A stretch of 64,000 nt of DNA from Candidatus Calditenuaceae archaeon HR02 (GTDB lineage Archaea > Thermoproteota > Nitrososphaeria_A > Caldarchaeales > Calditenuaceae). Made by a program: the position numbers and the translations under genes. A model generated the notes under the pieces. The model had not been told where the DNA came from and did no database searches. It saw nothing but the letters and a program-made list of their open reading frames with translations. This document shows, in pieces, positions 1,185 to 61,000 of this stretch (position 1 is the stretch's first letter; each line of letters starts with the position of its first letter). Where the stretch lies: assembly GCA_002898395.1 (NCBI GenBank), contig BEHE01000002.1, forward strand, positions 59,462 through 123,461, read 5' to 3'.

Positions 1185-2080
1185 TCATCGAATCGTCAGA
1201 AGAAGCCCTCTCTTCTTCAAATATTCCTCGAGTCTCTTCCTCTCGATCGTGAAACTGACCTTCTCGTAGAACGTCAGATTCGACTTCTTACTCACCTTGA
1301 CGTAATAACAGTCTTTTCTCTGTCTATACACTTTCCCCGTCTCTGGATCTCTAATCGGCGTTCCGGCCCGCTGACGCAATATCGGCTCATCTGAGGTCGT
1401 CTCTATTCCGATTCTGCTCAGCAGGTATATCACGTATTCTAGTAGCCTGTAGTCGGTGTTGGTCACCTCAATTATACCATTTTTACGAACGCAGCCCTCG
1501 CTGTCGAAGAATCCTCGTAAAAATGCCGCGATACATCTCTCGCAGTGCTCAACGTACGGTCTGATCTTCTCGATATCTATGGGTTTCTTGAGCAGTTCGT
1601 AAAGTGTTTTGGATGCGACTTCGACGACCCATCTACCGTCTTTATTCAGTCTTGGTATTGGTGGTTCCCTTCCCAGAACCCTCGCTATTGTCTTGGCATA
1701 GAACTCGCCGAACTCTTTGTCCTTGACCATTAATCCGATAAAGAATTCGTCATATGTTGGTGGCGGTTTACTTTTCTTCCAAACATAACCGTCTCCAGCC
1801 TCAACTCCGATCACGTAGGCTAGATCCTCTGAAGGCTTCAGGAACTCTAATGTCGGTACTCTGATTCCGTTGTAAGGAGAGTGTTTCCTATTGCACCATT
1901 CGCTGCAAGCGGACTTGCGGATAGTAACGTTATATCTTCTCTTTATCTCCTTGATTATTTGTCCGTAAGACAGTCCCTGTTTTCGGAGTTCAAGAACGTC
2001 CTCGTGGATCCTTATCCTCAGCCCCCTCGGGAGATAACTTCCCCCCTCTTCTCCATTATTTCTTCTCTCCTATCACCCAT
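1185..2080 (-). CDS. Free-standing LAGLIDADG homing endonuclease with N-terminal HTH; probable frameshift near the 5' end
   Basis: Two motifs, LAYVIGVEAGDG and FLRGFFDSEG. The frame extends upstream of the track start (GSYLPRGLRIRIHEDVLELRKQGLSYGQIIKEIKRRYNVTIRKS), but ATGs at 2080/2056 are out of frame across a G6 run (2041-2046). Confidence 0.85.
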
Positions 2081-4393: not shown

Positions 4394-6550
4394 ATGGATC
4401 CATTGGTTTTTACCATTACTGTGGGATTGCTCGGTGCTGCCGCTTCGGTGCTCCTAATAGCGTATGTAGAGAGGCTTCCTAAAGGTGATGAGGGGTTTGT
4501 TAATATTTGGCGCGCAATCCGGGAAGGTGCGAGCGCGTATCTTAAGAGGCAGTTTAAGACGATCGCCATCATCGCGGCTGCCTTAGCTACCTTGATTCTG
4601 GGCAGCTTCTCCATCTTTCCTCAGCTGGGGGGACTCAGATACGGCATCGCCATGGCAGGCAGCTTCCTATTGGGCGTTTGCTTCTCCCTCATCGCAGCGT
4701 TCATAGCGATGGATGCCGCTACAAGGGCTAACGTAAGGACAACGTATGCGGCCTCTCGGAGCAGTGTGCAGGCACTTCGAGTGGCGACGCTCGGCGGCGC
4801 GTCACTGGGTCTAGCAGTGATCGCTATGAGCCTTCTGGGCCTCTCTATTCTTTACGTTGTTTTCAGGGACCCTGGACTTCTGGCGGGCTTCGGGTTTGGG
4901 GCTAGTCTAGCTGCACTGTTCGCCCAACTCGGTGGAGGGATATATACTAAGAGTGCTGATATTGGTGCAGACCTTGTTGGAAAAGTGGAGGCGGGCATAC
5001 CGGAGGACGACCCTAGAAACCCCGCAGTGGTAGCCGACCTGGTTGGTGATAATGTCGGGGACGAGGCGGGTAGGGGAGCTGACCTCTTCGAGTCGGTCAC
5101 AGCCGAGAATCTTGGAGGAATGATAATAGCTCTCGTAGTGTCTATAGTATTGTTCAATGGTATTAATGAGCTGTATGTTGTCACTCCACTAATAATTAGG
5201 GCTCTCGGAGTTATAGCCACGTTCGCAGGCGTTTCTTGGGCGGTCTCGAGGAAGGGTTTTAGAGAGGCCATAGGCCCGCTTCGAGAGGGCCTGATAGTTA
5301 CGGGCATATTGGCGGCTGTTATGATGTATCTCGCCAGCTGGCTCATATTCGGACCCCAGGGCCTGCCGCTTTACGTTACAATGATTATCGGGCTGATCGC
5401 GGGCATCTTGATAATGTTTTATAGCGAGTTTTACACAGGCTTGAAGTCCAGATATGTCTCGGTGATTGCTCAGAATTCCCAGTCGGGACCAGCCCTTACC
5501 GCGATGACGGGAATATCGACCGGCATGATCTCTTCGATGCTTCCAGTTGCTACGGTTGTCGTGGCTGTAGCCCTCTCATTCTGGCTAGGGAGCTATTGGT
5601 CCGGCATCGCTGGTCTAGGTGACCCACTGCTGGGCGGGATTTATGGTACGACAATGGCGACTATGGGAATGCTCTCGACCGCTGGATTCATCTTGACCAT
5701 GGATGGCGTGGGGCCCATCGTGGATAATGCGGGAGGGATAGCAGAGATGGCTAACGCTGAGCCAGTCATTAGGGAGAGGCTCGAACCGCTTGACGCGCTC
5801 GGAAACACTACAAAGGCTCTTACAAAGTCTTATGCCATGGGCTCGGCAGCCCTAGCAGCCCTTCTTCTATTCCAAGCCTTCCTCCTGGAGGTGGCGAGGT
5901 ATATGGCGGGCATCTATGAGCTCGTGCTGATAGGGCCGGGGGAGGCTGACCGTCTCTTGAGGAGCGTCGAGATGCTTAGCTCGGGACTCCAGCTCAACTC
6001 GCCCGCCGTGGTAATAGGGCTTTTCATAGGGGGTATGATACCTTTCCTCTTCTCGGGGCAGGCAATGAATGCTGTAGCCAGCGGCGCATACCGCATGGTG
6101 GAGGAGGTGAGGAGACAGTTTGCATCAATACCGGGGATAATGGATGGAAGCGGTAGGCCAGAGTATGGGCGGTGTGTAGATATCTCCACTTCGACAGCTT
6201 TAAGACTGATGATTACGCCCACGTTGACGGTGACCCTTTCCCCGATCTTGATAGGCGTGTTGCTTGGCTGGAAGGCAGTTGGCTCCCTAGTATTGGGTGC
6301 GACGATCTCTGCGATACCACTGGCGATCATGGGGTTCTATGGTGGAGCGGCGATGGATAATGCGAAGAAGCTCCTCGAGATTGGGGGCAAGAAGGGAACT
6401 GATGCTCATAAAGCGGCAGTCGTTGGCGACACACTGGGAGATCCCATGAAAGACACTTACGCGCCGAGCCTACACATCCTGATAAAACTGCTTAATACGC
6501 TGTCCCTTGTGTTTATCCCGCTCTTTATGATTGGGCTAATACCACTCTAG
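4394..6550 (+). CDS. hppA: Membrane H+-translocating pyrophosphatase, K+-independent type
   Basis: GGGIYTKSADIGADLVGKVE, EDDPRNP, DNVGD, GPIVDNAGG, GNTTKALTK (Lys = K+-independent signature), GDTLGDPMKD. Confidence 0.97.
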   Translation: MDPLVFTITVGLLGAAASVLLIAYVERLPKGDEGFVNIWRAIREGASAYLKRQFKTIAIIAAALATLILGSFSIFPQLGGLRYGIAMAGSFLLGVCFSLIAAFIAMDAATRANVRTTYAASRSSVQALRVATLGGASLGLAVIAMSLLGLSILYVVFRDPGLLAGFGFGASLAALFAQLGGGIYTKSADIGADLVGKVEAGIPEDDPRNPAVVADLVGDNVGDEAGRGADLFESVTAENLGGMIIALVVSIVLFNGINELYVVTPLIIRALGVIATFAGVSWAVSRKGFREAIGPLREGLIVTGILAAVMMYLASWLIFGPQGLPLYVTMIIGLIAGILIMFYSEFYTGLKSRYVSVIAQNSQSGPALTAMTGISTGMISSMLPVATVVVAVALSFWLGSYWSGIAGLGDPLLGGIYGTTMATMGMLSTAGFILTMDGVGPIVDNAGGIAEMANAEPVIRERLEPLDALGNTTKALTKSYAMGSAALAALLLFQAFLLEVARYMAGIYELVLIGPGEADRLLRSVEMLSSGLQLNSPAVVIGLFIGGMIPFLFSGQAMNAVASGAYRMVEEVRRQFASIPGIMDGSGRPEYGRCVDISTSTALRLMITPTLTVTLSPILIGVLLGWKAVGSLVLGATISAIPLAIMGFYGGAAMDNAKKLLEIGGKKGTDAHKAAVVGDTLGDPMKDTYAPSLHILIKLLNTLSLVFIPLFMIGLIPL

Positions 6551-7728
6551 GGCCGCTCCCCCAACACCACCGCAACGTTTAACGTCTCACCGCCCCTAAG
6601 GATAGTCAGCAACACTGTGTCTCCAGGACTCGTCTTCTCAACCATGTATGTCAGAAGGTCGTCCATGCTAGTGACCGGGTTACCGTTTATCGCCACTATA
6701 ACATCACCTCCGACTCTATACTCTCTCCCAGCAACCACGAGGGTCCTAGAGCCTCCCTTGATACCGGCCTTATCCGCCGGACCATTCGGAACTACGCTCT
6801 CCACCAACAACCCTTTCTTCACACCGAGTCCAAGCTCACTGGCAATTAGTGCGTCTATCTCTCTACCCGAGATCCCAAGATAGCTGTGGGTATATCCGCC
6901 CTTTTCGATTAGTTCTGGAACTATACGCCTCACAACGTTTGATGATATTGCATACCCAATCCCCGCGAACTGCCCCGTAGTCGATTCTATCGCAGTGGCA
7001 ACACCTACAACTTCCCCCCTCATATTGAGAATAGGTCCTCCAGAGTTTCCAGGGTTCACGGCAGCATCTATCTGTATTATTCCGGGAATGAGGTATCCTC
7101 TACTTGAAGGTAAAAGCCTACCCTTCTGGCTGACAATGCCTGTCGTAACACTTCCCGTAAGCTCGAAGGGGTTACCGATAACGATTATCTGGTCGCCAAT
7201 CTGGAGTTCGCTCGAGTTACCGAGCCTTAAAGGCTTGAATGACCTAGTCTCCCCACTCCCAACTATCTTCAATACCGCCAAGTCCGTGTCAGGATCTCTC
7301 CCCACGAGCTCTGCCCTATAAGCACTCCCATCGATAAAGTAGACATAGTACTCCAGCCCACCTTCAACCACGTGATTATTCGTAACCACATGTCCCTTTG
7401 GGTCATAGACGAATCCGGAGCCTACAGACTCTCCAAACCTATAGAGCGTTCTTATCTCGACTACAGAATCTTTAACCATTTCATAGACCCGCGTCACATT
7501 ATACTGAATTGTTACGACGGCTGTATGGGCTGGCCGGGAATTCTCAATTGAACTTATCTCAGCCCTCGCCTCCTGCAGGTCTTTTCTGAGAGACTCTATC
7601 TTTGATTCCAGCGCAGCTATTTGAGAGGTGAGCGTCGACAGGTTTTGCTGGTAATCTATGACTTGAAGGAATAGGATTGCTATGAGGGCGAGAGATGCTG
7701 CTGATATGGCTATCGAAACCTTGCTCAT
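6547..7728 (-). CDS. htrA: HtrA/DegP serine protease with membrane anchor, coiled coil and PDZ
   Basis: GSGF, TNNHVV, DLAVLK, GNSGGP, C-terminal PDZ. Confidence 0.95.
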   Translation of the reverse strand: MSKVSIAISAASLALIAILFLQVIDYQQNLSTLTSQIAALESKIESLRKDLQEARAEISSIENSRPAHTAVVTIQYNVTRVYEMVKDSVVEIRTLYRFGESVGSGFVYDPKGHVVTNNHVVEGGLEYYVYFIDGSAYRAELVGRDPDTDLAVLKIVGSGETRSFKPLRLGNSSELQIGDQIIVIGNPFELTGSVTTGIVSQKGRLLPSSRGYLIPGIIQIDAAVNPGNSGGPILNMRGEVVGVATAIESTTGQFAGIGYAISSNVVRRIVPELIEKGGYTHSYLGISGREIDALIASELGLGVKKGLLVESVVPNGPADKAGIKGGSRTLVVAGREYRVGGDVIVAINGNPVTSMDDLLTYMVEKTSPGDTVLLTILRGGETLNVAVVLGERP

Positions 7729-9533: not shown

Positions 9534-9661
9534 GTCCCGTCCAGCCCTGAGCGCCCCAATGACACTCTAGCCTCCATGATAAATACCCTTAAAGGTCTGA
9601 GAGTTGCCAAGATGTGGCGATAAAGGGGTTTTATATATCTGTACAATCTTTTACGGATGGA

Positions 9662-9868
9662 TTGCTTAGACTCAAGGTTGGCAAATCACTTGGAATGTGG
9701 GAATGGGCAACCACGAGCTGCGACGCCTGCCTCCTAGACATCGAGGAGGGAGCCGAGGTTTCCAAGTGTGGTAACTGTGGGGCCTTATTCCACGCCGATT
9801 GTTTCAGAAATCTTCTGAACACAAAGTCTGTATGCCCAAAGTGTAGGGTGAGCTTGTATGAGCAGTAA
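9662..9868 (+). CDS. Small C4HC3 RING-finger protein (putative E3)
   Basis: C-x2-C-x12-C-x2-C-x4-H-x2-C-x10-CPxC. TATA-like TTTTATATAT at ~9629-9638 favours a leaderless TTG start at 9662. Confidence 0.85.
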   Translation: MLRLKVGKSLGMWEWATTSCDACLLDIEEGAEVSKCGNCGALFHADCFRNLLNTKSVCPKCRVSLYEQ

Positions 9869-10232
9869 TGAGAAAGAGGAGGCAGGGCCCGGCGAGGAGG
9901 AAGAGATAGTCATCGACATTATAGAGACGCCTAGGGGCCGTGTCCCTGAATTCGACAGTACCTTCCGCGCACTCGAGAAAATATCGGCCAGACTTTTAGA
10001 GCAGGATGAGAAGATAGAAAGGGCTTTGAGCCGCATATCGAGTGGACAGCTATCAAGCACCGAGCTTAAGACAATTCTGGAGACACTCGAGTCTATTAGA
10101 GAAGACTTATCTAAACTCTCGAAGAGGCTGGAGATAATAGAGGATAATATAGGTGAAATGTATGAAAGGCTAAACCTGCTGGACTATCTGGCTGATATCG
10201 TTGAGCGTTATCTTCGCTCCCTAGAGGGCTAG
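9858..10232 (+). CDS. Coiled-coil protein with acidic N-terminus, overlapping the small RING gene
   Basis: 11-bp overlap with the upstream ORF; heptad Leu/Ile pattern in the C-terminal half. Confidence 0.75.
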   Translation: MSSNEKEEAGPGEEEEIVIDIIETPRGRVPEFDSTFRALEKISARLLEQDEKIERALSRISSGQLSSTELKTILETLESIREDLSKLSKRLEIIEDNIGEMYERLNLLDYLADIVERYLRSLEG

Positions 10233-11077
10233 GTGGGTCCCCGAAGTATTCCGCCCCTGAGTTCCTGCTTAATCCGCTCCAACTCCCGCTTCTCAGACTC
10301 CAGCCTAGAAATCTCCTGGGCGAGCTGGGCTTTCTTCTTCTCCAGCCTCCTCACCTCCTCGGCCAGCTGCGAGAACTGCTTGTTATACTCCTCAGCAATA
10401 GATTTTGCCGCCTCGAGCCTCAATATCTCCTCCCTCTTCCGCTCCTCCAGCCTCACGAGCCTCTCGAGCCTCGCCTCCCTCACTTTAAACCTCTTGTCCA
10501 ATTCTTTCATAGTCTTCTCAATGCCTTCAGCCGCGGACTGGAGCGCTGCGAAATAGGAGCCGTGGAGCTCTCTTATCTTCTCCTCGAGATACGCCTTCCG
10601 CTCCTCCAGCTCTTCGACCTCTTTCTCAAAATTCCTCAAGGCCCTGTCCTTCTCCTCGACCTCCTGCCTAAGCTGAATCAGCTCTTGGCGCAATGTCTCG
10701 AGGTTGTTTTTCTCCTGCTCCAACCTCTCCCTCTCCTGCAGTATTGCCTGCCTGGCCTTCTCCAAGACCTCTACCTGCTCCCTCTGAAACTCCAGTAGCC
10801 TCGCCAGCTCCTCCTGCTGCTCTTGGAAGATCACGAGGTATGAGGTGAGGGACTTCAAGACATTCACGCCTTCAATGAACTCTTTTATGAGATATTCTGG
10901 CTGAGTTGAGGCTAATGCGTCAAACCTAGCAATCATTTCTTGGGCGGCAGACTTTATCTGGCTAATCACGCTTCCCGAGATTTGCGACTCGATGTTTTGG
11001 AGCTGAGTCATTATACTCCTTAAATTCTGCGATATAGCTTCCAGCTCCTCTGAACGCCGCCCTATTATCGAGCCCAT
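10229..11077 (-). CDS. Long coiled-coil protein of unknown function
   Basis: 282 aa, E/K/R/Q/L-rich with long heptad runs and no enzyme motif. Confidence 0.8.
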   Translation of the reverse strand: MGSIIGRRSEELEAISQNLRSIMTQLQNIESQISGSVISQIKSAAQEMIARFDALASTQPEYLIKEFIEGVNVLKSLTSYLVIFQEQQEELARLLEFQREQVEVLEKARQAILQERERLEQEKNNLETLRQELIQLRQEVEEKDRALRNFEKEVEELEERKAYLEEKIRELHGSYFAALQSAAEGIEKTMKELDKRFKVREARLERLVRLEERKREEILRLEAAKSIAEEYNKQFSQLAEEVRRLEKKKAQLAQEISRLESEKRELERIKQELRGGILRGPT

Positions 11078-11197
11078 CCTTCGTAATCTCTCTATTTCTT
11101 CGGATATAAATCTATACTCCTCGAATTATTGGCCAAGCCCTCTATCTGAATCGGTGAACTTATTTATATATAGGCTGCATGATGAAAGTGCAGGTCA

Positions 11198-11950
11198 ATG
11201 ATCACTCAGACAAGTGAGGCTTTGGCCAGGTTCAGCAGGATCGGTGCTCTAATCTCACTCTTAGGTGCGACACACGCTTTAAGCCTAATACTCAACTGGT
11301 TCTCGATAAATTACGACGATGTTGGCCGATCCCTGATCAGTGGGTATACCTTCATGGAGCCCCTACTGATTTCTTTGGCTGCTGGCGGCGCGGCCGGCGC
11401 AACAGGCGTGTTTGCCTCAAATCTTAAGGATCTCACGAAGCTTAGACTCGTTGTGCCACTCCTCTCTTTTACTGCGGCGGGGCTAGCCCTCTTCTCACCC
11501 CTCTACACATACTTGATAAAGCTTCCAGGCTTCGGTGGCCTGAACTTCATTCCCGAGCTGGGTCTATTCGCAGCCCTCTTCACAGGGATAGCGATAACGG
11601 GTGCCTCGATACTCGCCCTAATTGCTGCCATGCGGACACGTGTTACAGCCTACATGGCGCCATCACCCCTCTGGGTAACGGCAAGGGAAGAGGAGACCGG
11701 GACAGTCGCGGAGTTTACCGAGCCGACAGCCGAGGAACAGGCAGCCATACTTGAGCAGGCTCCGGAGAGGGAGGAAAGGGGATTAGAAACAGCGGCGGGC
11801 GGCCAGTGTATGATATGTGGCGACCTCATCACAGGAGGTGATACTGAGTCCTGTCACAGGTGTGGAGCCGTCTTTCATAAGGATTGCATGAACGTGTGGG
11901 TTGACTTGGGGAATAAGTGCCCTTCCTGTGGAGGGGAGCTCCGAGGCTAG
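11198..11950 (+). CDS. Multi-pass membrane protein with acidic linker and C-terminal C4HC3 RING finger
   Basis: About 4 TM helices, then an E-rich linker, then CMIC-x11-CHRC-x4-HKDC-MNVW-x6-CPSC. TATA-like TTTATATATA at ~11163-11172. Confidence 0.85.
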   Translation: MITQTSEALARFSRIGALISLLGATHALSLILNWFSINYDDVGRSLISGYTFMEPLLISLAAGGAAGATGVFASNLKDLTKLRLVVPLLSFTAAGLALFSPLYTYLIKLPGFGGLNFIPELGLFAALFTGIAITGASILALIAAMRTRVTAYMAPSPLWVTAREEETGTVAEFTEPTAEEQAAILEQAPEREERGLETAAGGQCMICGDLITGGDTESCHRCGAVFHKDCMNVWVDLGNKCPSCGGELRG

Positions 11951-12039: not shown

Positions 12040-13548
12040 ATGCCTGAGCAGCTCGCCGAGAGCATTGTCCAACTCGCGTTGAGGAGGGGGTTCTTTAACC
12101 CCACAGCTGAGATATACAGGGGCCCAGCCGGCTTCTATGATCTAGGACCGCTGGGAACACTGATGAAGCTAAACCTCATCAATTATTGGCTGGACACTTT
12201 CGTGAAGAGGGAGACATCCTTCGAAGTCTACCTTATCGACGGTTCATTGATACTCCCATATGAAGCATTGAAAGCTTCTGGTCACGTAGACAAGTTCACT
12301 GATCCCAAGGCGGAGTGTGTTAAGTGTGGCAGAATCCACCGCCTAGACCAGCTCATCGAGGAGACGCTAGGATTGAAGGTGGAAGGAAAGGGTATCGAAG
12401 ACCTGCAGGAGATAGTGAAGGTTCAGGGGGTTAGATGTCCCAATTGTGGGGGCGAGCTGACGGGCTTTAAGGAGCACCACCTGATGTTCAAACTCTCTAT
12501 AGGGGGAGGGGGGGAGGCCGCATTTCTCCGCCCCGAGACGGCGCAAAACATCTTCCTAAACTTTAAGAGAATAGCATACGCTATGAGGGCTAAGCTACCC
12601 TTCGCAGTAGCCCAGGTTGGGAAATCATTTAGGAACGAGATCTCCCCCCGCCAGTCCATTATCAGGCTCCGAGAATTCAGCCAAATGGAGATTGAGGTCT
12701 TCTTTTCTCCCATTAGAGGCGACGGGCCCAGTAAGTTCGAGGATGTTGGCGATACTGTTATTCGTGTCTTGACCCGAGAGGAGCAGAAGAGAGGTGATGG
12801 CGGAGAGGCAATAGAGCTGAGAGCCAGAGATGCCGTTGAGGAGGGAATAGTACCTAACAAGTTCCTAGCATACTATCTTGCCAAGGAGGTGAGGTTCTTT
12901 CAGTCGCTCGGTATTCCGCCTGAAAACATGAGGTTCAGACACCTGCTGCCAGAGGAGACGCCACACTACTCGGGGGGGAATTTTGACCTCGAGGTGAAGT
13001 TCTCGTTTGGATGGAAGGAGGTCGTGGGGAACGCTTACAGGCGAGACTATGACCTCACAGTCCACTCCAAGCACTCTGGAGAGGACCTTTCAATAGATGA
13101 TAATGGCGTGAAAATAGTTCCACATGTGGTTGAGCCATCTTTCGGTGTTGAAAGAATTCTTTACGCAATACTCGAGCATTCGTACAGGGAAGGAGTTAGA
13201 GAGTGGCCCATTCTAATGCTCCCTAGAATAATCTCTCCCATAAAAGCAGCCATACTCCCATTACTTGACCGGACCGCCTTGGTGGCGAAGGCTTGGGAGA
13301 TCTACACCTGGCTCAGGGCTAGTAGGCTTCCCATCTACACTGTTTATGACGATCGGGGATCAATTGGTAGAAGATATGCACGGGCTGATGAGGCGGGCGT
13401 CAACCTCTGCGTGACAATCGACCACCAGACACTACAGGACAACACGGTTACGGTTAGGGATAGAGACACTACATCACAGATTAGAGTAAAGATAGATGAG
13501 CTTGAGGAGCTAATCTTCAACGACACGTATAGGGGACTGGAACAGTAA
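12040..13548 (+). CDS. glyS: Glycine--tRNA ligase (alpha2 type)
   Basis: ASGHVDKFTDP, LRPETAQ, FRNEISPR, RLREFSQME, VEPSFGVER, GSIGRRYARADE. Confidence 0.97.
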   Translation: MPEQLAESIVQLALRRGFFNPTAEIYRGPAGFYDLGPLGTLMKLNLINYWLDTFVKRETSFEVYLIDGSLILPYEALKASGHVDKFTDPKAECVKCGRIHRLDQLIEETLGLKVEGKGIEDLQEIVKVQGVRCPNCGGELTGFKEHHLMFKLSIGGGGEAAFLRPETAQNIFLNFKRIAYAMRAKLPFAVAQVGKSFRNEISPRQSIIRLREFSQMEIEVFFSPIRGDGPSKFEDVGDTVIRVLTREEQKRGDGGEAIELRARDAVEEGIVPNKFLAYYLAKEVRFFQSLGIPPENMRFRHLLPEETPHYSGGNFDLEVKFSFGWKEVVGNAYRRDYDLTVHSKHSGEDLSIDDNGVKIVPHVVEPSFGVERILYAILEHSYREGVREWPILMLPRIISPIKAAILPLLDRTALVAKAWEIYTWLRASRLPIYTVYDDRGSIGRRYARADEAGVNLCVTIDHQTLQDNTVTVRDRDTTSQIRVKIDELEELIFNDTYRGLEQ

Positions 13549-17254: not shown

Positions 17255-17896
17255 CTATAACTGGATCGTCTCCATCCTGATGACTCCAGACCTGCCTATC
17301 ACGAGGATGTCTATACCATTCCCACTGGCCGCGTCGCGTGTAGCACCGGCCTTGACAGCCTTCACGGCTAGATCGCTTATCTCATCAGCCCTGGCACCCG
17401 GCTTGAACCAGGTCTCAAGCACTCCAGCGGCTATCTCCGCACCGCTACCAACCGCCGTATAATCGTCTTCGATCACTGAGCCAAGCGGGTCAAGGACATA
17501 TATGTGGGGGCCGGTCGAGTCAACGCCGCCCACCACCGTCTCGGTGAAGTAGGGGAAGAGCCGGTTTCCGAATAGATAGGTGGAGAGGACCTTTGCGACT
17601 GTGTTCACGGATGGGAGCCTCCCTTGCTCCAATATGTAGAGGTTTATCAATGCTTTGGCCTCCCTGATGAGTCCCTGCATATCTGAGACCAATCCGGCAC
17701 ATGCGGCTCCTGCGTTCCTTGTCAGCTGGAAGACCTTCTGAGCGTTCTTAGAGACCACAAAGTTGCCATATGATAGCCTCTTCTCAGAGGCTAGGACAAC
17801 GCTATCAACCCCCTTTATCCCGACAGTAGTCGCCCCCGGAATGATGTAATAGCCCTGCTGCACAACCACTAGAGAAAGGCTCAACCTTTTAACCAT
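17255..17896 (-). CDS. psmB: 20S proteasome beta subunit
   Basis: PGATTVGIKG.D.VVLASEKR, AGLVSD, LDPLGS, GSG, RDAASGNGID. The real start is probably a later GTG. Confidence 0.95.
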   Translation of the reverse strand: MVKRLSLSLVVVQQGYYIIPGATTVGIKGVDSVVLASEKRLSYGNFVVSKNAQKVFQLTRNAGAACAGLVSDMQGLIREAKALINLYILEQGRLPSVNTVAKVLSTYLFGNRLFPYFTETVVGGVDSTGPHIYVLDPLGSVIEDDYTAVGSGAEIAAGVLETWFKPGARADEISDLAVKAVKAGATRDAASGNGIDILVIGRSGVIRMETIQL

Positions 17897-59305: not shown

Positions 59306-61000
59306 CTAGAGGCGCGGTAGGGTTACCGCCCCCATCGAGGCTGAAGAGACGAGGGAGGCGTACTTTGCTAGGAGCCCTGAAGTGGCTCTCGGCGGTTTGG
59401 GCTTGAAGTCCCTCTTTCTACGCTCCAATTCTTCTCCCGATACTAGCAGGTCTAGCCTACCTGTCTCCGTATCTATCAGTATCATGTCCCCGTTCTCGAC
59501 TATGGCTATCGGCCCACCTGACGCTGCTTCTGGAGCCACGTGACCGATCATGATACCCCGGGTCGCACCGCTGAACCTTCCGTCAGTCACCATGGCAACA
59601 GATTCTCCAAGCCCAGCGCCAGAGAGGGCGGCCGTGACCCTCAACATCTCCGGCATGCCAGGAGCACCTTTTGGCCCAACATACCTTATCAACAAGACGT
59701 CGCCTTCCCTTACAGCTCCACCTCTAATCGCCTCAAATGCAGACTCCTCGTCTTCGAAGACCCGCGCCGGCCCCTCGAACCTAGTCACACCCGTAGCGGC
59801 AGTCTTCACAACTGCGCCCTCGGGGGCCAACGACCCCCTCAATATTCGGATGCCACCTGTCCTCTTGATCGGCTTTGCAGGATCTCGGACTATGTGTTCG
59901 TGGGGGACGTTGGGTAGCCGATACTCCCTTAGGCTCTGGGCCAGTGTCTTGCCTGAGACGGTCAGGACACTCCCATCTATTAGCCCTGCATCCAGCAGCT
60001 TCTTGAGGAGGAGTGGGGCGCCCCCAACCCTGTCGAGATCGGCCATGACATATTCTCCAGCCGGCCTCATACTGAGGATGTATGGGGTCTTCCTAGAGAT
60101 TTCGTCGAAGTCATCCAAGGTGAACTTGACTCCAGCCTCATATGCTAGGGCTAGGAGGTGGAGTATACCGTTCGTTGAGCCCCCCGAGGCCATGAGGAGT
60201 GTAGCCGCGTTCCTAAACGCCTCGTAAGTCAGGATGTCTCGAGGCTTTATCCCGTTCTCTAAGAGAGTGCCCAAGGCCCTACCTGTCTCGTAGGCAAAAA
60301 TCGCCCTTCTCGAGGAGGTTGCTGTTGGGCTCGAGCTTCCCAGGAGTGCTAGGCCCAACCCTTCACTTAAAATAGCCATCGTGTTAGCTGTGAATAGGCC
60401 TGCACAGGCCCCATATGTGGGGTGTGCGACCATCTCGACCTGAAGAAGCTCCTGCTCCGAAATCTTCCCACTGATGTAGGCGCCAACATATTCGTGGACA
60501 TCCTCTATCGTGAACTTCTTCTCCCCTATGAAGCCGGGCTCGGCTGAGCCGCCGTACATGTATATTGAGGGCCTGTTGATCCTTGCCATAGCCATCATTA
60601 TACCGGGCTGGGTCTTATCGCACCCTCCTATCCCGACGAACCCGTCATACGCGTGGGCGACTATCTGGGCCTCCACGCTGTCTGCTATCACCTCCCTGCT
60701 GATGAGGCTATATCTCATACCCTCAGTCCCCATCGATATGTTGTCATTTACCACTATTGTGGGCATTGCAAGTCCCACGCAACCAGCGTCGCGTAGACCT
60801 TGCTTCACATAGCCGACTAGGTATAGAGTGTGGAAGTTGCATGGACCTGATTCACTCCAAGCCACGACAACACCGGCTAGCGGCTTGCCAATGTCACTGG
60901 GGTCGAGGCCAATGGACCAGAGGAACGACCTGTGAGGCGCGTTAAGTGTGCCTCCAAACCGCTCAACACTATAGACAGAGCCCTTCCCCAATCCCGACAT
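59306..61000 (-). CDS. ilvD: Dihydroxy-acid dehydratase
   Basis: [40 protein letters not shown]. Confidence 0.93.

Follow-up and report, generated by a model that had tools for sequence, protein, structure and literature searches.

A candidate membrane-anchored RING-type ubiquitin ligase in the ubiquitin-bearing archaeal order Caldarchaeales

The closest described system is the cascade of ubiquitin-activating enzyme (E1), ubiquitin-conjugating enzyme (E2) and RING-type ubiquitin ligase (E3) of Caldiarchaeum subterraneum. Its published operon runs from Rpn11 to the small RING finger protein srfp (PMC3082918, Fig. 3 legend), whose zinc ligands are given in the same text as C-X2-C-X11-C-X2-C-X4-H-X2-C-X10-C-X2-C (PMC3082918). 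According to the text of PMC5654768, srfp is needed for ubiquitylation in vitro; the reaction is lost with the I30Q exchange, significantly impaired with W58A, and also impaired with R69A, at the linchpin position. That text also describes the physiological substrates of the cascade as unknown and reports work with heterologous Rad50, on whose coiled-coil lysines srfp-dependent ubiquitin was placed in vitro (PMC5654768). A 2026 review, in the text available, credits archaea with only Cdc48, the 20S proteasome and 'a primitive precursor' of the cascade (PMC13328587). Here, we describe a further RING protein from Candidatus Calditenuaceae archaeon HR02. It is encoded at 11198..11950 on the plus strand of a stretch of 64,000 nucleotides, called the window, which spans positions 59,462 to 123,461 of contig BEHE01000002.1 (GenBank assembly GCA_002898395.1). 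The protein, called the membrane RING in what follows, has 250 residues and is composed of a predicted four-helix (tetraspan) membrane domain, an acidic linker, and a C-terminal RING finger. On balance, it is rather probable that this is a membrane-anchored RING-type E3 of the eukaryote-like ubiquitin system of its order.

The reading frame begins with ATG and extends just 4 codons upstream of it (254 residues for the whole open frame). The start is common to all orthologues, whose first residues are alike. A word-based protein search returned 15 homologues at 34-100% identity, and the named ones are labelled 'RING finger protein', mostly from 'Nitrososphaerota archaeon'. Databases already name the protein as a RING finger protein; what is unreported in the literature searched is its membrane-anchored form. 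The protein is unmentioned in the available text of the two operon papers and their supplements (PMC3082918, PMC5654768), in that of the Aigarchaeota comparison (PMC6053391), and in the literature searches; the 2011 survey of prokaryotic RING fingers, which lay outside this scope, may describe it. Likewise, the word 'transmembrane' is absent from the available text of PMC3082918, PMC5654768 and the latter's two supplementary files, and in PMC6053391 it occurs in a reference title alone. No RNA sequencing run was listed for the gene, and one hot-spring metagenome DNA run holds 0.32 of the sampled words, a result that carries no information on expression.

The RING finger occupies residues 203-244 (11804..11929, plus strand), where Pfam zf-RING_2 scores 32.2 bits, above its cut-off of 27.3 (E 1.3e-7). 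Its ligands are C204-x2-C207-x11-C219-x2-C222-x4-H227-x2-C230-x10-C241-x2-C244. An earlier note on this DNA had described a C4HC3 RING that retains the tryptophan four residues after ligand 6 (DCMNVW), and the alignment bears this out. None of the eight zinc ligands varies among 43 orthologues drawn from across the order, and the tryptophan, W234, is Trp in 40 of the 43, Tyr in 2 and Leu in 1. I206, between ligands 1 and 2, is Ile in 42 of the 43. These two residues are the equivalents of W58 and I30 in srfp. The residue after the last Cys, at the linchpin Arg/Lys position, is Gly in 23 orthologues, Lys in 16, Asn in 2 and Gln in 2, and is Gly (G245) in the window protein. The nearest solved RINGs by sequence all belong to E3 ligases, namely ZNRF1 (2.7e-7), then Arkadia, RNF165, EL5, AMFR (2e-4) and synoviolin (2.6e-4). 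When aligned with RING-H2 structures, C222 falls on ligand 3, an Ala stands at the position of the ligand-4 His, and C219 supplies the fourth ligand. In our reading, this would be a RING-H2-like finger made C4HC3 by a ligand swap, and not a RING-CH.

Other zinc-finger classes fit less well. Prok-RING_1 (PF14446) is the second-best Pfam match and lies under its cut-off (24.3 against 29.1 bits); homologues carry this label in precomputed annotation. No NCBIfam family was found for the membrane RING, the search giving a sub-threshold rubrerythrin-like zinc knuckle alone (19.5 against 32 bits). A PHD finger was rejected on score (13.0 against 24 bits) and spacing. A MARCH-type RING-CH was rejected on its C-x2-C-x4-H spacing and on the absence of RINGv from the 19 Pfam families at E <= 1, a list from which HMMER filters may drop very weak matches. 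The RING-CH spacing is C-x2-C ... C-x-C-x(4-8)-H-x2-C ... A complex predicted for the genome's own E2 and RING residues 196-250 scored 0.02 against a mark of 0.32 and is used neither for nor against the E3 reading.

Upstream of the finger, four hydropathy peaks stand near residues 28, 64, 91 and 133 (1.46, 1.53, 1.76 and 2.16; Kyte-Doolittle, window 19). AlphaFold2 predicts four helices in this part with a predicted local distance difference test (pLDDT) of 90-98, in agreement with the roughly four transmembrane helices that had been counted in the earlier note. The model was built on 43 sequences (pLDDT 81.7 overall, 82-91 in the RING) and replaced a run on 13 sequences that reached a pLDDT of 56 and gave no usable membrane model. 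In the following, invariance refers to the 43-sequence alignment, and all features lie on the plus strand. Helix 1 (residues 5-31; 11210..11290) begins on the cytoplasmic side with an invariant R11 and also contains the invariant residues H26 and L30. Outer loop 1 is modelled as a beta-hairpin of strands 33-39 and 43-48 (11294..11341) with an invariant W34, and is directly followed by an invariant G49 and a near-invariant Y50 (11342-11347). Helix 2 (residues 53-75; 11354..11422) has a face of small residues, of which S59 and G67 are invariant and G63 and A66 near-invariant. A short basic cytoplasmic loop (K76, K80, R82) precedes helix 3 (residues 79-108; 11432..11521), which contains a conserved S100-P101-x-Y103 with S100 invariant. 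Outer loop 2 adds a third beta-strand in the model (residues 116-119; 11543..11554), and helix 4 (residues 121-146; 11558..11635) has an invariant G122 and then R146 and R148 on the cytoplasmic side.

The linker between helix 4 and the RING (residues 150-202; 11645..11803) is acidic, as had been noted, with 12 Asp and Glu residues against 3 Lys and Arg. It is 32-80 residues long across the orthologues and net negative in 36 of 43, and residues 165-200 have a pLDDT below 50 and are predicted to be disordered. Counting loops in order along the chain, the predicted inside (N-terminus, loop 2, and the flank that follows helix 4) holds 6.9 Lys and Arg on average and the predicted outside (loops 1 and 3) 1.9, with more on the inside in each of the 43 sequences; the hairpin of outer loop 1 averages 0.49. 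Because of this positive-inside charge count, the N- and C-termini, RING included, should be cytoplasmic, which is the side that had been proposed for the RING.

In a structure search, the top Foldseek rows for the membrane part are TARPs, claudin-19, claudin-15, GARLH4, Cav-gamma, and LHFPL5, all of them weak (best E 6.2e-3). A VIA-align run against 48,161 representative chains gave Z values of 13.6 for GARLH4 (148 residues, 3.3 A), 13.3 for MP20, 13.2 for claudin-15, 13.1 for 7lep_H, 12.7 for claudin-19, and 12.5 for Cav-gamma. Chain 7lep_H is a hippocampal AMPA-receptor auxiliary subunit chain that we take to be a TARP. Plain four-helix bundles come close behind (talin, Z 12.2 over 123 residues; ROP, 11.8 over 115 residues), and among Foldseek's top 1000 chains the best 50 rows are all from the claudin superfamily (Z 12.2-13.6, 127-148 residues). 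The Z values alone are no proof and sequence similarity is absent; because the aligned length is greater and an outer sheet is present, we argue that the modelled membrane part resembles the claudin-type tetraspan fold. Residues 1-197 have no Pfam match at E <= 1, claudin-type profiles included, and the ESM Atlas searched with residues 1-155 gave a best score of 0.78, under the chance-hit level. A literature search on archaeal claudin/PMP22 homologues found no paper.

The host's class is composed of a single order, whose 76 species genomes fall into 4 families and 15 genera. The membrane-RING profile matches 75 of the 76 genomes, and in 72 the match includes the membrane part. E2 is found in 75 of the 76 and in all 72 holders of the membrane RING. 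The earlier note had considered that homologues might be common in genomes lacking ubiquitin or E2, and among these genomes this is not so. Of the genomes in which the membrane part was missing, G050 (59% complete) has no E2 either, and the contigs of G066 and G071 end 1.0 and 0.7 kb past srfp. In a phylum sample of 401 genomes (60 in the order, 341 outside it), the membrane part is matched in 60 of the 60 genomes of the order and in none of the matches listed outside. Outside the order, 32 of the 341 genomes match, and among the matches listed, which leave out seven, they do so with the zinc-finger end alone (model position 98 onward). Against 1.84 billion representative proteins, the membrane part is covered by the best 14 hits (E <= 8e-18), and nearly all of those ranked 15 or lower match the RING alone.

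Two other kinds of protein came up in these searches. P0078, a 310-residue protein of the representative library, has a weak near-full-length match (positions 14-248, E 2.2e-8). Its N-terminal half contains hydrophobic segments, and the finger at its C-terminus is RING-like, stays under the Pfam cut-off (24.2 bits) and has Tyr replacing the Trp. From its sequence, it could be distantly related and come from another lineage. Three genomes of the phylum that belong to other families have membrane RING proteins of a different type. These proteins have several helices, a bPH_2 domain and a C-terminal RING in 308-312 residues (L046, 3273..4211; L047, 3099..4025; L048, 3090..4028).

The host genome has the ubiquitin context that the reading in the earlier note requires. 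A cluster on contig C21 encodes JAB/Rpn11 (59.1 bits, minus strand), ubiquitin (45.9 bits, 78 residues), E2 (95 bits), and E1/ThiF (186.8 bits), the last gene being cut by the contig end. The E2 keeps the loop 4 and loop 7 prolines P68 and P104, which are invariant in 8 of 8 sequences. Just two RING genes were found in the genome, and both lie inside the window: the srfp-type gene at 9614..9868 and the membrane-RING gene. The genome also has two Cdc48-like genes and one Snf7 gene. A Cdc48_N-bearing frame of 723 residues (contig C8, 31542..34321) lies ~2.2 kb from this only Snf7 match, which is ESCRT-III-like (endosomal sorting complex required for transport, ESCRT). A second ubiquitin-family match (32.9 bits) lies outside the main cluster in a 148-residue open frame (contig C28, 232..399). 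The ubiquitins of the host (locus L004 on contig C21, 1459..1695) and of L039 end directly in Gly-Gly. Those of L036, L037, L038 and L040 run 8-10 residues past it, and that of L045 runs about 20 before the stop of the open reading frame (ORF); the extended forms would need Rpn11 processing.

In three families of the order (f2, f3 and f4), these genes and the membrane RING form one arrangement. A coiled-coil gene and Rpn11 (both minus strand) are followed on the plus strand by ubiquitin, E2, E1, srfp and a small coiled-coil gene, then by a coiled-coil gene for ~280 residues (minus strand), the membrane RING (plus strand), and a class II tRNA synthetase (plus strand). Its stretch from Rpn11 to srfp has the same gene order as the published C. 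subterraneum operon. The membrane RING is less than 10 kb from E2 in 39 genomes (13 of f2, 3 of f3, and 23 of f4), on another contig in 30, and distant on the same contig in 3. The genes for srfp and the membrane RING are no more than about 2.5 kb apart in 39 of 53 f2-f4 genomes with a membrane RING and in 9 of 15 sampled from the window's family. The window's own family has a split ubiquitin cluster. The half with srfp, two coiled-coil genes, the membrane RING, and the synthetase is kept in the window, L042 and L044. Three coiled-coil genes without a family are conserved in the extended ubiquitin cluster of all four families; the third of them in the host is at L004 2..637 (minus strand) on contig C21. 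Because srfp-dependent ubiquitin landed on the coiled coil of Rad50, the three proteins are, by analogy, candidate adaptors or native targets.

As an E3, the membrane RING would work at the inner face of the cell membrane. The four-helix domain would serve as the anchor in the cytoplasmic membrane, leaving both ends of the protein inside and the three-stranded sheet outside, and the flexible acidic linker would tether the RING. The RING would dock the genome's single E2 in its ubiquitin-charged form (E2~Ub) via Ile206 and Trp234, and would promote ubiquitin transfer onto lysines near the membrane. The membrane domain would be the likely selector of membrane- or envelope-associated targets, or a sensor of the envelope state; the selector role is proposed by analogy with the claudin superfamily, whose members bind other membrane proteins laterally. 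Tagged proteins could then undergo proteasome/Cdc48 extraction or ESCRT-type sorting, and genes for both are in the genome; the tag could also serve in signalling. The membrane-protein quality control that the earlier note inferred would be a hypothetical role of such an E3. An extended form of this reading, in which a dedicated membrane-embedded E3 has a claudin/TARP-like selector, membrane-protein ubiquitylation and the claudin-type fold are both pre-eukaryotic, and the three coiled-coil proteins are adaptors or native targets, is tentative and rather doubtful.

The E3 reading draws on direct observations, namely the anatomy of the protein, its topology by the charge rule, its conservation, its co-occurrence with E2, and its gene linkage. 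Several points weigh against it. Co-occurrence in the order discriminates little, because all members have both genes. None of the 19 genomes of the window's own family has the gene linked to E2 (on another contig in 16, and 87, 313 and 719 kb away in 3). One genome, G062, is 95% complete and keeps srfp and both coiled-coil genes, with no membrane-RING ORF in the remaining 745 bases. These run to the contig start (contig C46, 1..2300; L050), and a genuine loss, a rearrangement, or an assembly join may explain the gap. An archaeal RING is alone no proof of ubiquitin, because the genomes with the bPH_2 and RING proteins show no E2 (PF00179 in 0 of 5 genomes, these three and two others). Finally, the linchpin Arg/Lys is replaced by Gly245, so the version of the window's family may be a weak ligase or dependent on a partner. 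The bPH_2 proteins and the unlinked gene would also fit a zinc module unrelated to ubiquitin, one that binds proteins or peptides or regulates a membrane process, with a proximity to ubiquitin genes that is historical. Burroughs and colleagues reportedly held in 2011 that not all prokaryotic RING fingers have ubiquitin-related functions. Such a role is made decidedly unlikely by the conserved E2-contact residues, by the gene order beside E1 and srfp that is fixed in three families, and by the restriction of the membrane domain to the ubiquitin-bearing order in the phylum sample and its listed matches.

Because the linchpin is missing and srfp is complementary, a role as a partner is kept open. 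The membrane RING would then be an accessory, non-catalytic RING, a membrane anchor that recruits srfp and/or E2~Ub, perhaps in a RING-RING heterodimer. BARD1, BMI1 and MdmX are examples of such heterodimers in eukaryotes. The window srfp has Ala at the I30 position and Leu at the W58 position and retains Arg as its linchpin (CPKCR); the membrane RING, with its Ile, Trp, and Gly, is the opposite. The srfp of L042 is like that of the window, and that of L044 has Val and Leu. From these residues, the window srfp and the membrane RING may work as a pair, and the closeness of their genes within about 2.5 kb in many genomes is in keeping with this. The complementarity is not general, however, since the membrane RINGs of f4 have the Ile, Trp and Lys all present and most of the f4 srfps read carry the full set as well. 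The four read have Ile (Val in one) and Trp, with a Lys/Arg linchpin in three and Gly then Arg in that of L039. An accessory role seems unlikely. The protein could also be an envelope sensor that ubiquitylates mainly itself, its outer beta-sheet sensing a signal that auto-ubiquitylation or turnover relays inward. The invariant W34, G49 and G122 at the outer membrane face, H26 in the middle of helix 1, and the likeness of the fold to auxiliary and sensor tetraspans would suit such a sensor. Against it, the protein has 6 lysines in all, and just 2 of these (K228 and K240) are in the cytoplasmic tail. The idea is compatible with the E3 reading, and nothing yet separates them; taken by itself, it is very improbable. 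The reading as a membrane-anchored E3 is the one we retain.

Around the membrane-RING gene, the small RING finger protein of srfp type is encoded at 9614..9868 (plus strand, 84 residues). It matches zf-RING_2 with 37.7 bits and has no NCBIfam family. Its end is overlapped by the start of a coiled-coil gene for 124 residues (9858..10232, plus strand), with orthologues of 102-126 residues in 9 of 10 loci compared (not in L043). A second coiled-coil gene, for 282 residues (10229..11077, minus strand), is divergent from the membrane-RING gene. Its orthologues of 271-302 residues hold the same position in L036-L040, L042, L044 and L045, and in L041 it appears as two ORFs (170 and 182 residues) with an unread stretch. 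In Pfam, both coiled-coil proteins give sub-threshold coiled-coil noise alone, and neither has an NCBIfam family. The divergent arrangement is kept in 9 of the 10 loci (the exception is L043). The two genes are separated by an intergenic region at 11078..11197, in which an A+T run, TTATTTATATATA, stands at 11160-11172, its end 26 bases ahead of the ATG of the membrane-RING gene. From its sequence, TTATTTATATATA is a possible archaeal TATA box.

Downstream, a class II aminoacyl-tRNA synthetase is encoded at 12040..13548 (plus strand). Its Pfam domains, tRNA-synt_2b and HGTP_anticodon, indicate that it is probably a glycyl-tRNA synthetase. In 9 of the 10 loci it stands directly after the membrane-RING gene, and no such ORF is listed in L045. 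The synthetase is a conserved neighbour and not a functional part of the membrane-RING system. The HtrA-like gene (Trypsin_2 and PDZ; 6547..7728, minus strand) and the proteasome subunit gene (17255..17896, minus strand), which the earlier note had placed within about 6 kb, are both present. That their proximity may be coincidental holds for HtrA. It is kept in L042, the single same-genus locus compared, and other families have ubiquitin genes in its place, so HtrA is not a conserved partner and was rejected as a functional partner of the membrane RING. Further away, an ORF with a LAGLIDADG_3 domain like that of homing endonucleases lies at 1185..1814 (minus strand, 63.9 bits).

With a membrane RING three genes after srfp and in 72 of 76 genomes, there is a concrete hypothesis that the ubiquitin system of these archaea acts at the membrane, and a first candidate for target selection in an archaeal ubiquitin system. 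The protein bears on the origin of eukaryotic membrane-protein ubiquitylation. If the extended reading is true, membrane-protein ubiquitylation, the logic of endoplasmic-reticulum-associated degradation (ERAD), of MARCH-type down-regulation, and of ESCRT sorting, would be older than eukaryotes.

Among known systems, srfp of C. subterraneum is the nearest to the RING itself. The zinc-ligand spacing of srfp and the membrane RING is identical, also for the window srfp. The membrane RING shares 35% identity over 40 residues with the latter and 40% over 45 residues, ungapped, with the srfp of G012. srfp is soluble and has 68-87 residues, whereas the membrane RING adds a four-helix domain of 150 residues and a long acidic linker, and in the window's family has G245 where srfp has its linchpin R69. 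By sequence, the membrane RING is a paralogue of srfp and is itself not an srfp.

The eukaryotic membrane E3s Hrd1/synoviolin, gp78/AMFR, MARCH and Doa10 share with it a polytopic membrane part and a cytoplasmic RING, and the RING is similar in sequence to those of AMFR and synoviolin. The earlier note had likened the protein to MARCH, Doa10 and Hrd1, and this likeness stands for the general architecture. It does not extend to the RING, which has a spacing other than RING-CH and no RINGv match. MARCH and Doa10 carry their RING at the N-terminus. Nor does the likeness extend to the membrane domain. Among the matches listed, the structure search gave claudin/TARP tetraspans and not the membrane parts of Hrd1, Doa10 or MARCH, and no Hrd1 or gp78 membrane chain is among the structural matches listed for the four-helix model. 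The membrane domain of the Hrd1 type has 6-8 helices that form a retrotranslocation channel. Judged by the model, the membrane domains of Hrd1, gp78, MARCH and Doa10 appear unrelated to the four helices and claudin-like outer sheet found here.

The claudin superfamily (claudins, PMP22, MP20, TARPs, LHFPL and Cav-gamma) shares with the predicted model a four-helix bundle and a beta-sheet from outer loops 1 and 2. Claudins have a five-stranded sheet and a W-GLW-C-C signature in loop 1. The sheet of the membrane-RING model has three strands, its loop 1 (residues 32-52) is without cysteine, and the protein is archaeal and fused to a RING. To our knowledge, the claudin-type fold is regarded as eukaryotic; if the likeness is confirmed, the membrane RING would be a prokaryotic example of it.

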